Below are positions 5,137 through 10,332 of a stretch of 64,000 nucleotides of DNA, one piece after another. The DNA is from Shigella phage ESh36. A program made the translations under genes and the position numbers. Below the pieces are notes generated by a model. The model did not search any database, was not told the DNA's origin, and worked only from the letters and a program-made list of their open reading frames with translations. The DNA is taken from the sequence record ON528746; one strand, 5' to 3'. Positions within the stretch are counted from its first letter, which is position 1; each line of letters opens with the position of its first letter.

Positions 5137-6819
5137 TTAAACCATTACAGTAAATCGACCAACTTTCTTCATTTGAAGATGCTGACCATATGCTTGCGGG
5201 TCGTGGTCTCTATGTGAAATAACAAAAACATTAGTATTTTTTAAACTATCTAAAATAGTTGAAATAGCTTTTACACCTTCAACATCAGTTGCTGAATCAA
5301 AAACTTCATCGAGAATTAGTGTGTTTATTTTAACACCTGAAACTTTTTCAGCAATATCACGCCAAGTAAATAGAAGAGCAATATCAATTCGTGCTTTTTC
5401 GCCTTGACTGAATGAAGCATAACTAAAATCTTCACGACCACGGGATTTAATTGTCTCATTAAATTCTTCATCTAATGTAAACACATAATCCGCTTCCATT
5501 ATTTTAAGATAATGGTTAATCTGCTTATTAAATAATGGAATGTACTTTTTAATAATAGCACCTTTAATACCAGAATCTTTGAGCATATCAGTCAAAATTC
5601 CTCTGTGGTATTTTTCCATTACTAAATTAGTTTTTGTCTTAACAATTTTATCAAGTTCTTCTTGAAGCAGTGCTATTTCATCAGCATGGTCAATAAACTC
5701 GGATGATGCTTTTTCTATAGCTGCTTTAACTTTTTTAGCTTTATCTACAGTCGTGATTAGAGATTGCTTTTTATTGCGAATATCATTTGCCAACGTCTGT
5801 TGGGTTTTAATATTATCTCGGTATTCATCAACGAGAACTTTTAAATTATCACGATGTGTTGAAAGCTGTTCAAACGAATGCGTGCATTCAGAAACTTTAT
5901 CTTTAATTTTAGAAACAACTTTATCACCGGAACTTAATTGTGACAAACAGGTTGGACATAATCCACCTTCGTGATACATATTAATGACTTTATTATACGA
6001 GTCAATTTTTGATTTAATTAAAAATGCTTCTTGGCCGATTTTATTAAATGCATCAGTCGGGTCTTCATCCAAAACAATATTAACTAATCTTTCATTAGCT
6101 TCTTCTATTTCCGATTTTAGCGTTCTAGCTTCTTTTGCCAAATCATCATACATATTCTGTAGACGAGTAAGGTTATCACCAGTTAATTTTTTCTGGCGTT
6201 CAACGTTATCATTATATATTTTAATTTGTTGGATAATACTATCTTTTTTAACATCAAGCACTTGGTTTTGTGAATTTAATTCACGTATTAGTGCTTTATT
6301 AAGCTTATCCATTTCAGCTAATGTTCCTACCTCGAGCAGGTCTTCCACAAGCTTTCTTCGTGCAGGGGTCGACAAACCCATGAAAGGGGTATACCCTGCT
6401 GTACCAAGGACAACAATCTGCTTGAAACTGGCATATGACATTCCGATAAGCTGTTCAAATTCTGCTTGGAAATCTTTACTGCTGGCAGATTCATTAAGAC
6501 GTGTACCGTTAACGGTGATTTCGAAAACGTTTGGTTTTTGCCCTCTTTTGATATAGTACTTTTTCTCATCATATTCCATCCACAGTTCAACTAAAAGTTC
6601 TTTCTTATTTGTGCTGTTTATTAATTGACCTTTCTTTACATCACGAAATGGCTTGCCAAAAAGCCCAAATGTGATGGCTTCTAACATAGTAGACTTACCA
6701 CCACCATTTCGTCCAGTAATAAGAGTTTTTTGAACCTTATCTAGTTGAATGTCAATAGGATTTCCACCTACTGACATTATATTTTGATACCTAACTCGGT
6801 TTAGTTTAAAATTCTTCAC
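5137..6819 (-). CDS. 46: Recombination nuclease ATPase subunit gp46 (SbcC/Rad50-like)
   Basis: 560 aa; Walker A GRNGGGKST; long coiled-coil middle; matches T4 gp46. Confidence 0.9.
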   Translation of the reverse strand: MKNFKLNRVRYQNIMSVGGNPIDIQLDKVQKTLITGRNGGGKSTMLEAITFGLFGKPFRDVKKGQLINSTNKKELLVELWMEYDEKKYYIKRGQKPNVFEITVNGTRLNESASSKDFQAEFEQLIGMSYASFKQIVVLGTAGYTPFMGLSTPARRKLVEDLLEVGTLAEMDKLNKALIRELNSQNQVLDVKKDSIIQQIKIYNDNVERQKKLTGDNLTRLQNMYDDLAKEARTLKSEIEEANERLVNIVLDEDPTDAFNKIGQEAFLIKSKIDSYNKVINMYHEGGLCPTCLSQLSSGDKVVSKIKDKVSECTHSFEQLSTHRDNLKVLVDEYRDNIKTQQTLANDIRNKKQSLITTVDKAKKVKAAIEKASSEFIDHADEIALLQEELDKIVKTKTNLVMEKYHRGILTDMLKDSGIKGAIIKKYIPLFNKQINHYLKIMEADYVFTLDEEFNETIKSRGREDFSYASFSQGEKARIDIALLFTWRDIAEKVSGVKINTLILDEVFDSATDVEGVKAISTILDSLKNTNVFVISHRDHDPQAYGQHLQMKKVGRFTVMV

Positions 6820-7079
6820 AAAAGATTCCTTTTAATGTATCTTTTAGACCATTCTATCATATCATCATAATCTAAAAAGTATTCATCAAATTCAGCCATG
6901 CAAACAACACCTTGTGCTGATTTTGATGTGATATAAATTATTCCAACATATCTAGAATCTTCTTCGGTGTAATCAATATTTGCTATGAATTCATCGTTAA
7001 TGTCAAATGTCGAAAACTTCACAGTATGCATCCTTAATACAAGATACAGCCATATCTTGTAATGATTTAGGTGTGTCAT
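6816..7079 (-). CDS. Hypothetical protein (46.1 position); start uncertain
   Basis: 87 aa ORF overlapping the next ORF; an internal ATG at 7031 (MHTVKF...) may be the true start. Confidence 0.35.
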   Translation of the reverse strand: MTHLNHYKIWLYLVLRMHTVKFSTFDINDEFIANIDYTEEDSRYVGIIYITSKSAQGVVCMAEFDEYFLDYDDMIEWSKRYIKRNLL

Positions 7080-7266
7080 TATCTAAAATGTTGAAGTTAA
7101 AAGATACAGCCCAGTCAGTGCAGACCGTAACCTTTTTAATACAATTATCTTCAACCTCTAGCGGTTCAAACCAATATTCAATAATTTCTTTATGCCCAAT
7201 ATCATCTTTTACTTCGCATTCAAAATGCTGACTCATCATAACATTTTTAAATTCATCAAAAGTCAT
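7003..7266 (-). CDS. Hypothetical protein (46.2 position)
   Basis: 87 aa ORF, 4-nt overlap with the gene 47 stop. Confidence 0.4.
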   Translation of the reverse strand: MTFDEFKNVMMSQHFECEVKDDIGHKEIIEYWFEPLEVEDNCIKKVTVCTDWAVSFNFNILDNDTPKSLQDMAVSCIKDAYCEVFDI

Positions 7267-8282
7267 TGTGTTGCCTCTACATATAACTGATTTGCATATT
7301 GAATAAGTGCTTCGCGATCAGAATCAGTGATGTCTGGAATTGCATTAATGTATTCTTCCATCAATGTCTGAAGAGATTGAACTTCAACTTCTTCACTATC
7401 ATCTGACTCGACAGAGTTATCAATCTTTGACACAACTCGTAATGAATGCACAACTTTTTCTAGTTCAGATTCGAACTTCGTTAGATTTTTGTCTACTTCA
7501 GTTACTATAACACGTACTGATAGATTTGTAAAATCTTTATAGTCAATTTTTCCCTTAAATGGATATTGAATTCGACGATGCCAGGTAGTGTTGTTTGGAA
7601 TAAATTCCATTCGTTCTGTTTCTGTATCAAACATCCAGAACCCGCGAGGGTCATTCTCGTCACCTGCAGTTAGTGTCCATGGTGTCCCAATATATCTGAC
7701 ATTAGCAGCCTCAGAGATAGTATGGAAGTGACCAGACCACACCTCTTTATAAGTCTTAAGGAAATCAGGTTCAAGACCGTGAGATTTCATTCCTTTATAA
7801 AAATAAAATCCATTCAGTTCCCAGTGACCAACACAAAAAGAAGCAGATGAAGTTTTGATATGTTCAAGAATTTCACCAGTATTTTCTTCACACATCCAAG
7901 GAATTAAATCAATCAAACATCCGTCAAAATCTACTGTAGTAGGCTTATCATATACTTTAACATTAGGATATTTAGCCAAAAGCTCAGTAGAAGCATTTGG
8001 ATGCATTACATTTTTGTAGTGGAGATCGTGATTTCCTACAATAGTATGTAATGTGATTCCAGCGTCATCAAGCATTTGAACTATTTCACGGGCAAACTCC
8101 ATTGTTTTATGCGTGATCGCTTTTCGCACATCAAAAATATCACCATATTGAATCCATACCGTAATTCCATTTTTCTTAGAATATTCTATCGCTTGCTTAA
8201 TTCCATCAATTTGAATACCGCGAATCCACTCATCATCAGCTTTAACGCCTAAATGCCAATCACCCAAGTTTAGTATTTTCAT
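7263..8282 (-). CDS. 47: Recombination nuclease subunit gp47 (SbcD/Mre11-like)
   Basis: 339 aa; phosphoesterase motifs GDWHLG, GDIFD, GNHD; matches T4 gp47. Confidence 0.9.
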   Translation of the reverse strand: MKILNLGDWHLGVKADDEWIRGIQIDGIKQAIEYSKKNGITVWIQYGDIFDVRKAITHKTMEFAREIVQMLDDAGITLHTIVGNHDLHYKNVMHPNASTELLAKYPNVKVYDKPTTVDFDGCLIDLIPWMCEENTGEILEHIKTSSASFCVGHWELNGFYFYKGMKSHGLEPDFLKTYKEVWSGHFHTISEAANVRYIGTPWTLTAGDENDPRGFWMFDTETERMEFIPNNTTWHRRIQYPFKGKIDYKDFTNLSVRVIVTEVDKNLTKFESELEKVVHSLRVVSKIDNSVESDDSEEVEVQSLQTLMEEYINAIPDITDSDREALIQYANQLYVEATQ

Positions 8283-8392
8283 GATGTCTTTTCCATCCTA
8301 ATTTAGCTGCTTTTGAAACCAGTTCTTTAATTTTTCCTTTTGCCCATTCAGGACCAGGAGGTTCATGACATAACATTTGCTTAACTCCGTTA

Positions 8393-8884
8393 TTATACCA
8401 TTTTTTTACCTTTATTATGTGATGAAGCTTTAAATTTATTTGACCTTCCTTTTACATAACCTTCTGGAATATAAGGTAAAAAGGCAGATTTTCCTGTTAA
8501 TGGATCATGTGAATGTATATTTCCTTTACAATTATGAGAACCATATAATGGATGATTTTGTCCTTTATTATCTCTTCCAAATGAACCTTTTGGAGCAGCA
8601 TATGACATATTAAAGAATAATGGATTTTTAACTGCATCATGCAATCGTTGATAATATAACTCGCATTTAATAGCTTCTTCACGCGTATCAAATTCAGCTA
8701 AAATGCATGAATCAAATAAGTGAGGATTATCTGAAAGCTCTTTATTATAAATTTTCTTATACTTTTTAGATAAAACTGAACCATGATATCCAGCTAAATG
8801 CCTATCTAAAGACGTAGATCCAATATAAAAAGGAGGAAGTTTATCTCCACTATATATTGTTAAATAAGTTATATATTTTTTCAT
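8393..8884 (-). CDS. GIY-YIG nuclease-domain protein (Seg/I-TevI-like catalytic domain, short form)
   Basis: 163 aa; N-terminal TIY-x8-YIGST then R and FDSCILAEF...REEAIKCELYYQRL, paralleling I-TevI GIY-x10-YVGSA...FECSILEEI...ERENFWIKEL. Confidence 0.5.
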   Translation of the reverse strand: MKKYITYLTIYSGDKLPPFYIGSTSLDRHLAGYHGSVLSKKYKKIYNKELSDNPHLFDSCILAEFDTREEAIKCELYYQRLHDAVKNPLFFNMSYAAPKGSFGRDNKGQNHPLYGSHNCKGNIHSHDPLTGKSAFLPYIPEGYVKGRSNKFKASSHNKGKKMV

Positions 8885-9044
8885 ATATCAAGAACCGTCA
8901 TTGAAATGCAAAATAAAATTATTGAAATAAATCCATCTGGAGTGCTAAAGAACCCAATCCAACACGCTCTAGTGAATAGATAAAACGCTAGAAAAAGTAT
9001 CACATATCCAAGAAATATCATTATATCAAACTCCGTATAAAGCT

Positions 9045-9062
9045 AAAGGGCCGAAGCCCTTT
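9045..9062 (-). other. C(UUCG)G-type hairpin at the 3' end of a-gt
   Basis: AAAGGGC-CGAA-GCCCTTT overlapping the a-gt stop codon. Confidence 0.55.
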
Positions 9063-10263
9063 ATTTTGTAATAATGTCAAATTGTTCTTTAAAGCAGAAG
9101 CTTGAATCTTGATGCTGATACAAAAATTCATAAGCTTTTTCGCGTTCGCGGTCATAAAGAGCTCGGTCAGATGACAGTTCTTTAATACGTTCAAATGTTG
9201 ATTCCATGTCATTTTCATCAAACCAAACGATACCGCTATCATGAGAAATTAACGGAGTATTATCAACACGAAATTTTAAATTTTCGCCAGTAGATTTCCA
9301 AAATACTGGAATTGTTCCGCATGCACCAAGCTCTAGATGAGTATATTCTAAAGAACGTTGTAGATATTTTTTATCTAATTTACTCAGCTGATAACCAAAT
9401 CCGGATTTACTCATGCGTTCAAGCATTTCACTATTTACATAACGGTCAAGAATTTGCGTTGGCAAATTAGGAGCAATTTTAATTTGGTCTACTTGATGAA
9501 GACGATAATACTCATATGGAATTCCTTTTTCTTTAATAGGAATGAACGCTGGAGAACGTTCCAGACCTTCCATAATAGTACTTAGTCCTGCAGGTTTAAG
9601 ATGTTTTTCGTGAAAATCAAACATCTGATAAAAACCTTTCCATGTAGTCGTACGACCAATCCAACGGTTGACATTCATATTAATTTCAGAAACATCTTTC
9701 CAGTATGTTGATCGAACCTTCGCAATATCCATAGGAGGCTGAAAGTTGTATACAGTCGGTGCTTCTTCAATATCATCAAACAGAGAAACTGTTTCTGGAT
9801 ACCATTCTTTCATCAAAACTTTATTAAAATCGCCATTATCAGAATGGCTAAAAATAACATCAGCTCGACGAACAGTTTCTTCTAATCCCAAATTTCGGCG
9901 CAAAGAAAGAGAAGAATGGTCATGTTGATAAACTACAACACGAACCGAAGGTTTAATGTTATCAATAATTTTTTTATAGTTATTAATAGTGTCTTCTTCG
10001 ACTGAAGTAGCAGGAACTGAATTGATAATTAGAATATCACAATCATTTACCAGCTTAAGTGTTTTATCGTATTCTTTTGCCAATAAAACCGGAATTGAAA
10101 ATGATTTATAATCATGCGCGCAATTACGAGTAAATGATTTATCTTTAGCATAAACCAAAGTTACTTCATGACCATTTTTAATAAACCAATCACGCTGCTC
10201 GAGAGAAAATTTAGTTACGCCGCAACCTTCAAGACCTCGAGCCATAAAAATGCATACTTTCAT
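9061..10263 (-). CDS. a-gt: DNA alpha-glucosyltransferase
   Basis: 400 aa; near-identical to remembered T4 a-gt (…FMARGLEGCGVTKFSLEQRDWFIKNGHEVTLVYAKDKSF...). Confidence 0.9.
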   Translation of the reverse strand: MKVCIFMARGLEGCGVTKFSLEQRDWFIKNGHEVTLVYAKDKSFTRNCAHDYKSFSIPVLLAKEYDKTLKLVNDCDILIINSVPATSVEEDTINNYKKIIDNIKPSVRVVVYQHDHSSLSLRRNLGLEETVRRADVIFSHSDNGDFNKVLMKEWYPETVSLFDDIEEAPTVYNFQPPMDIAKVRSTYWKDVSEINMNVNRWIGRTTTWKGFYQMFDFHEKHLKPAGLSTIMEGLERSPAFIPIKEKGIPYEYYRLHQVDQIKIAPNLPTQILDRYVNSEMLERMSKSGFGYQLSKLDKKYLQRSLEYTHLELGACGTIPVFWKSTGENLKFRVDNTPLISHDSGIVWFDENDMESTFERIKELSSDRALYDREREKAYEFLYQHQDSSFCFKEQFDIITK

Positions 10264-10312
10264 TTAATATCCTCATTGTTTTGGTTTATTTTACCAAAAA
10301 TTTATAAAGCAA

Positions 10313-10332
10313 TATAGGAGCCGAAGCTCCTA
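10313..10332 (-). other. C(UUCG)G-type hairpin upstream of a-gt
   Basis: TAGGAGC-CGAA-GCTCCTA palindrome. Confidence 0.5.

Follow-up and report, generated by a model that had tools for sequence, protein, structure and literature searches.

A free-standing SegE-like GIY-YIG homing endonuclease gene, probably directed at gene 47, and its frameshifted copy in Shigella phage ESh36

The question raised by the region upstream of gene 47 in Shigella phage ESh36 (sequence record ON528746) is what kind of gene is represented there by a short open reading frame (ORF) with the features of a nuclease, and why its product is so short. The stretch of DNA analysed, referred to below as the window, comprises 64,000 nucleotides. 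A sequence-only reading had described the ORF as containing a GIY-YIG catalytic core in a protein much shorter than the Seg and I-TevI endonucleases, and had offered three possible identities for it: a truncated remnant of a homing endonuclease, a domesticated nuclease or a free-standing homing element that marks a mobile insertion. The explanation that we consider probable is that the ORF, referred to here as seg, is a frameshifted and likely inactive copy of a free-standing, SegE-like GIY-YIG homing endonuclease gene for which gene 47 is the probable target. The gene is of a well-known kind, although itself unnamed and uncharacterised; a literature search returned no paper that names or tests it, and no cleavage or inheritance data for the protein or its close homologues.

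Position of the gene and its GIY-YIG domain

The seg-like ORF is located at 8393–8884 on the minus strand and encodes, according to the ORF list, 163 amino acids followed by a TAA stop. A GIY-YIG catalytic domain (approximately residues 1–95) is followed by a linker and then by the first C-terminal repeat. The neighbouring genes were named by comparison with the annotated T4 record. Upstream is gene 47.1 (8881–9021, minus strand), which encodes a predicted membrane protein of 46 residues, with a-gt (9061–10263) further upstream still; downstream is gene 47 (7263–8282, minus strand), encoding the 339-residue Mre11/SbcD-like subunit of the recombination nuclease. The start codon of seg overlaps the stop codon of 47.1 as ATGA, and the 3′ end of the intact, 207-residue allele found in other phages overlaps the start of gene 47, such that its TGA is located within gene 47 codons 7–8. 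A promoter scan found sigma-70-like sites to be no commoner than in shuffled sequence, and the sole convincing terminator hairpin in the scan is that after a-gt (9044–9063). As judged from the sequence, seg appears to have neither a promoter nor a strong ribosome-binding site of its own. In seg-less genomes, the stop codon of 47.1 and the start codon of 47 overlap directly as ATGA (13 of the 13 examined). The seg ATG replaces this stop/start overlap, by which 47.1 is predicted to be coupled to 47, because the two copies of a seven-nucleotide direct repeat, ATGAAAA, constitute the start of seg (8878–8884, minus strand, overlapping the TGA of 47.1) and the start of gene 47 (8276–8282, minus strand). 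A search of the 64-kb window for paralogues, using both a family hidden Markov model (HMM) and a GIY...YIG regular expression, returned just this ORF and its own C-terminal remnant. As a separate observation, the 46.1 ORF of the window (6816–7079) has 87 codons compared with the 68–71 residues annotated in T4 and its relatives, which probably reflects an upstream in-frame start.

The motifs on which the sequence-only reading had relied are present in the window sequence. Residues 4–84 match the Pfam GIY-YIG family (PF01541) with E = 1.3e-4 and a score of 22.7 bits, for which the gathering threshold is 22.6; taken alone, this is marginal, but the assignment is made firmer by several further results. 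The ORF matches phrog_10820 of the PHROG collection with E = 2e-79; the database contains 171 homologues, many of them with NUMOD3; and, amongst 54 aligned relatives, 17 match PF01541 independently and 23 match NUMOD3. An AlphaFold model was built not on the truncated ORF of the window but on an intact 207-residue allele (P0001), which is 99% identical to the intact protein of phage Lutter and is the same as the window ORF over residues 1–161 apart from D66N. The mean pLDDT of the model is 87, and the value exceeds 95 at residues 1–90; the predicted fold is that of a three-stranded sheet with flanking helices, as in I-TevI or the N-terminal domain of UvrC. Foldseek comparison with viral models returned Seg-like and NUMOD3 homing endonucleases. 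The proposal of a GIY-YIG nuclease domain is thereby confirmed. Searches of PDB chain sequences, both with the single protein and with a profile of the 54 sequences, found no nuclease, and a search of NCBIfam gave nothing meaningful.

For the catalytic residues expected of a GIY-YIG nuclease (two Tyr, Arg, Glu and Asn), the window copy has Y7/Y11, Y20, R28, E75 and N92 as candidates. Across the 54 aligned sequences, E75 and N92 never vary, and conservation is 90% or more for each of Y7, Y11 and Y20. The column that corresponds to the catalytic Arg27 of I-TevI varies within the family; it is occupied by arginine in the window copy and by K, R, N or Q elsewhere. Database labels for the gene range from ‘HNH endonuclease’ (RefSeq) and ‘putative homing endonuclease’ (BASEL phages) to ‘hypothetical protein’, and in the output of annotation pipelines the frameshifted copy appears as a pair of separate hypothetical proteins. 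‘HNH endonuclease’ is the wrong family, both for this GIY-YIG/Seg-type protein and for its topoisomerase-associated relatives. The misannotated RefSeq records include NC_054924, NC_054911, NC_054919, NC_018855 and NC_028820, amongst others.

The frameshift in the window copy

The short length of the window ORF is explained by a single nucleotide. When the window was aligned with phage vB_EcoM_Lutter, whose annotation gives the gene as a CDS of 624 nt, the sole difference in length was in a homopolymer run at 8401–8407 (minus strand), which is A7 on the coding strand (T7 on the plus strand) in the window and A6 in intact alleles. Owing to the extra A, reading slips out of frame at codon 162 and ends two codons on, which leaves 163 residues rather than the 207 of the intact protein; of the identities suggested earlier, that of a truncated remnant fits this copy. 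The description ‘much shorter than Seg’ holds for the 163-residue copy and does not extend to the intact protein, which is of normal Seg size (SegE, SegG and SegC have 205, 210 and 140 residues, respectively).

The C-terminal half of the intact protein consists of two ‘xNG...P(E/D)G(F/W)xKG’ units, which correspond to two beta-hairpins in the model, and the frameshift falls exactly at the beginning of the second. The truncated product retains the catalytic domain and the first repeat, and has just part of the presumed DNA-binding region because the second repeat of the SegE type and the terminal helix are gone. The earlier suspicion that a DNA-binding domain might be missing was thus correct in part: the complete C-terminal region is absent from the window copy, while being present in the 207-residue allele of other phages, and the first repeat has been kept. 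The lost portion persists as an out-of-frame remnant (8260–8400, minus strand) that comprises the second ‘WYNNG...PEW.KG’ repeat and the terminal helix. Within it is a 38-codon ORF (8260–8376, minus strand), with a GGAG 8 nt upstream of its ATG and a TGA inside gene 47 codons 7–8, which weakly matches the tail of phrog_10820 and that of the family HMM. If this ORF is translated, its stop codon in the first codons of gene 47 could preserve termination–reinitiation coupling despite the frameshift. The start of the remnant ORF (window 8370–8400, minus strand) is ATG in the window and TTG in Lutter.

The A7 allele also occurs in ESh16, ESh34 and ZCEC15; at three of 68 records, it is rare. The ESh36 protein record is identical to the 163-residue protein. 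The protein cluster contains another frameshift allele in which the same run has changed from A6 to A5, giving a product of 194 residues, and the KMB22 allele has a shift in a later run of A, which gives a different 194-residue product. Could the extra A at 8401–8407 be a sequencing or assembly error, such that the real phage has an intact 207-residue enzyme? A one-base change in a run of six to seven A residues is a classic site for such an error, the two further alleles in the cluster also differ by one-base changes in runs of A, and ESh16, which is flagged UNVERIFIED, and ESh34 are named in the same ESh series. However, the same A7 is present in all four phages, the seg gene of ZCEC15 differs from that of the window at other sites, and ESh16, the nearest record in the phage collection, shares just 98.6% identity with the window across 25 kb, which makes the latter a separate genome. 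Its occurrence in several genomes favours a genuine frameshift, and we consider an artefact to be rather unlikely.

It should be noted that shortness alone is no proof of inactivity because SegC of T4 is annotated at only 140 residues and yet is listed as active (PMC2988022). The 163-residue protein might still be a working nuclease, by itself with relaxed specificity, together with the 38-residue peptide or as a full-length product made by slippage at A7; its catalytic domain and first repeat are untouched, and the 38-codon ORF has the upstream GGAG mentioned above. Runs of A are known slippage sites, but the RNA downstream of the A7 run forms no stable structure (z = 0.07 relative to shuffled sequence), and so there is no support for programmed frameshifting. 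Furthermore, the rarity of the A7 allele does not favour a functional variant; the lost part comprises one of two repeats that are conserved with SegE, along with a confidently modelled helix; and 64 of the 68 listed records have neither frameshift (three have A7 and KMB22 has the different one), with the frame having been verified in five copies that were aligned and translated. Continued activity in any of these forms, including a working split enzyme made up of the 163- and 38-residue products, is therefore quite improbable. We infer that the 163-residue product would be inactive or poorly targeted. The frameshifted copy is most likely an inactive or crippled allele, of the sort expected for the decay phase of the homing-endonuclease life cycle.

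Presence and absence of the gene amongst Tequatrovirus genomes

A megablast search with 7900–9500 of the window retrieved 521 records, essentially all Tequatrovirus, of which 68 (~13%) cover the full query. The remaining records are without ~600 bp, and T4, T2, T6 and RB14 are amongst those that lack seg. The segment absent from T4-type genomes is located at 8283–8884 (minus strand) and is 602 bp in length in the window and 601 bp in intact alleles, with boundaries that are ambiguous by 7 nt owing to the flanking ATGAAAA repeat. Because scanning IMG/VR with gp47 gave few Tequatrovirus loci, none of which was seg-positive, the population comparisons were drawn from GenBank records. Seven seg-positive genomes (the window, Lutter, ESh16, a51, AndreasVesalius, GiZh and fPS-90) were compared with a set of 13 seg-less genomes (T4, T2, T6, RB14, ECML-134, AugustSocin, Ec_YwIITB1 and six IMG/VR loci). 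The inserted segment in this comparison is exactly 601 bp (602 bp with the extra A). Thus, there is both an intergenic, intron-less site between conserved genes and a presence/absence polymorphism at that site; the junction is polymorphic in T-even genomes, and does not contain an identical ORF in all relatives. The precise 601/602-bp polymorphism is what was anticipated by the proposal of a free-standing homing element marking a mobile insertion, which we adopt. A 124-bp internal deletion in KNP1 and KNP5 was considered as evidence of decay and rejected, as it is a run of N (an assembly gap); in KNP5 (NC_055713; L048, ~520–620), the N run in seg mimics a 124-bp deletion in the BLAST output.

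Four synonymous substitutions in codons 3–6 of gene 47 (8274, 8273, 8268 and 8265; minus strand) are linked to the presence of seg. The seg-type codons are ATA CTA AAC TTG, compared with ATT TTA AAT TTA in the T4 type, and all four substitutions are present in 7/7 seg-positive and 1/13 seg-less genomes (Fisher p = 1e-4). The seg-less carrier is Ec_YwIITB1; RB14 has one of the four. Over 1.4 kb to each side, no further site shows so strong a linkage to seg. Since the four positions are inside the overlap of seg with gene 47, they may be mere parts of the cassette and not a determinant of immunity. When a 76-nt uninterrupted junction with the seg-type haplotype was run against the phage collection, the uninterrupted junction was found in 435 records; in all, 422 records match at just 90–95% identity and are of the T4 type. 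Full matches come from approximately eight distinct phages, seven at 100% and UGKSEcP2 at 98.7%; the seg-less phages with the seg-type haplotype are YwIITB1, SHFML-26, UGKSEcP1, UGKSEcP2, EPIMAM01, PBM-1, BCPEco_001 and BCPSen_003. These junctions may represent precise losses via the ATGAAAA repeat, the state before insertion or immune alleles.

The seg gene is nearly uniform in the genomes that carry it (12 variable sites in 625 nt), and the a-gt flanks of the same genomes differ by up to 9%, which is consistent with a recent spread of seg onto diverged backgrounds. In the first 300 bp of gene 47, diversity is 0.3–3.4% in seg-positive genomes versus 5–11% in seg-less genomes, with no such contrast upstream of the insertion; the difference is suggestive only, being partly due to a divergent T6-type haplotype in the seg-less set. 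Pairwise differences between seg alleles are synonymous and non-synonymous in almost equal number (46:48), which suggests weak constraint. Nothing was found in support of the domesticated nuclease suggested earlier, and a gene that regulates or protects the 47/46 operon, or excludes competitors, instead of homing selfishly is very unlikely: seg does occupy the translational-coupling slot of an essential recombination gene, and relatives hold the same position in four genera, but 87% of Tequatrovirus records, T4, T2 and T6 amongst them, lack it, its frameshift alleles recur, uninterrupted junctions with the seg-type haplotype exist in the phages listed above, and the alleles differ with the 46:48 ratio just given.

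Other endonuclease genes are found nearby. A second polymorphic homing endonuclease gene (855 nt, labelled ‘homing endonuclease’ or mob-like) is located between 46 and 46.1 in Lutter, T6 and ECML-134 (L001 1–420, L039 66–920, L040 66–920 and L038 68–920; the corresponding window junction is 6816–6819). In T2 this gene is divided into two ORFs, and the window, T4, RB14 and ESh16 lack it; it and the seg-like gene flank the 46/47 module on either side. The mobB gene of T4 (HNH endonuclease; L002 7886–8680), between a-gt and a-gt.2, is absent from the window (10264–10330) and from all other Tequatrovirus loci compared. The positions of seg, the 46/46.1 gene and mobB give three alternative endonuclease insertion sites within ~5 kb.

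Homologues, the likely target and comparison with the Seg proteins and I-TevI

The protein family was found by tblastn in 173 phage records. The closest homologues are 55–73% identical over their full length, and all are encoded directly upstream of gene 47; the carriers of such gene-47-adjacent homologues are Mosigvirus AV109, Jiaodavirus KP185 and the Aeromonas phage (Biquartavirus) L9-6. Two IMG/VR loci, with gp47 ~70% identical, have the same arrangement, with seg homologues that are ~61–64% identical. The upstream neighbour varies by genome (47.1, a-gt or hypothetical genes), gene 47 being the constant partner. Only two of ~22 non-Tequatrovirus loci contain seg, and most members of those genera are without the gene. 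These genera have in common a conserved start of gene 47 (ATGAAAAT), as well as a conserved sequence for MKIL..GDWHLGV. A sister clade (Nispero, HX01 and TG1) is found directly upstream of the gene for the large subunit of topoisomerase. Its members resemble seg in their N-terminal catalytic domain (46–66% identity) and in overlapping the start of a downstream essential gene, but differ in the site of insertion and in a C-terminal half composed of NUMOD3 repeats and a terminal domain. The combination of a common catalytic domain with an exchanged DNA-binding half at another site is the usual modular pattern of homing endonucleases. The gene-47-associated homologues P0005, P0012 and P0020 (267–278 residues; L042 1798–2601) have an extra C-terminal module of ~70 residues, with the pattern ‘..LW....SP..F...A...G.P..SY..I..KF’, which is also found in the topoisomerase-associated clade and not in the 207-residue Tequatrovirus form. 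In view of this module, even the intact Tequatrovirus allele may be a shortened derivative.

How, then, might such a gene spread? In T4, segA, segE and segG are located directly upstream of their reported targets, uvsX, uvsW and 32, respectively (Table 1 in PMC2988022). The analogy points to gene 47 as the likely target of the present enzyme. In a mixed infection, the intact 207-residue enzyme would cut seg-less genomes within or close to the conserved 5′ region of that gene, and repair of the break from a seg-positive genome would copy seg, along with adjacent gene 47 sequence, into the recipient; the donor could be shielded by the four linked substitutions, by the insertion itself or by both. 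Cleavage and transfer by repair are modelled in this scheme on SegA, SegE and SegG. In the window copy, the change from A6 to A7 truncates the protein to 163 residues, most likely leaving an inactive or crippled allele in decay. A wider proposal, which we put forward tentatively and with doubt, is that a Seg lineage has become specialised for the best-conserved portion of gene 47, towards its 5′ end, where the GDWHLG phosphoesterase motif of the Mre11-like nuclease is encoded, and so moves between Tequatrovirus, Mosigvirus, Jiaodavirus and Biquartavirus, with the four synonymous changes constituting a cleavage-immunity allele that has persisted after precise loss of seg in approximately eight phages. 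If this is true, a single genus would display all the stages of a cycle of invasion, decay, loss and the immune empty site.

Intact, frameshifted and cleanly lost states of the gene all exist in available phages, including Bas42 (AndreasVesalius; seg-positive) and Bas38 (seg-less) of the BASEL collection. These provide a natural system for the study of the homing-endonuclease life cycle and of target-site immunity, in addition to the correction of the annotation. The catalogue of Seg-type genes in T-even phages comprises seven sites in T4, together with SegH; the junction of 47.1 with 47 adds a ninth Seg-type insertion site, beside the essential recombination nuclease genes 46 and 47, which themselves act in double-strand-break repair.

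The SegA–G proteins were extracted from the T4 record and scored with the family HMM. SegE scores highest (36.7 bits), followed by SegG (23.7 bits), SegC (18.1 bits), SegD (15.9 bits), SegA (13.7 bits), SegB (11.5 bits) and SegF (6.6 bits); what we take to be the sequence of I-TevI scores 3.9 bits. Comparison by hhalign gave a probability of 94.6% for SegA (E = 7e-8) and no relationship with SegF. SegA and SegG are detectable homologues, and their genes are likewise immediately 5′ of their own targets, but they have other C-terminal modules, targets and genome positions. The ‘YIGSTS...GYHGS’ block of the present protein matches the ‘YIG.HST..L.DGYMGSG’ block of SegA–E, and it is this ‘GYxGS’ region, instead of the variable column of I-TevI Arg27, that the T4 Seg proteins have in common with it. 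With I-TevI, by contrast, there is no similarity by sequence profiles, hhalign aligning only a weak NUMOD3-like stretch. I-TevI is encoded within an intron (the td intron of T4) and has a zinc finger, NUMOD3 and a helix–turn–helix, whereas the present gene is free-standing, with repeats of the SegE type. The closest characterised relative appears to be SegE of T4. BLASTP of the 207-residue protein gave 28% identity over 193 residues, in an alignment that spans the catalytic domain and both C-terminal ‘xNG...P(E/D)G(F/W)xKG’ repeats; the two proteins are of almost the same length (205 and 207 residues) and share the signature ‘YIG.xS...GYxGS’, and both genes are directly upstream of a recombination or repair gene. 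They differ in their sites, which are inh/uvsW (with uvsW as the target) for SegE and 47.1/47 here, their identity is low and the copy in the window is frameshifted.
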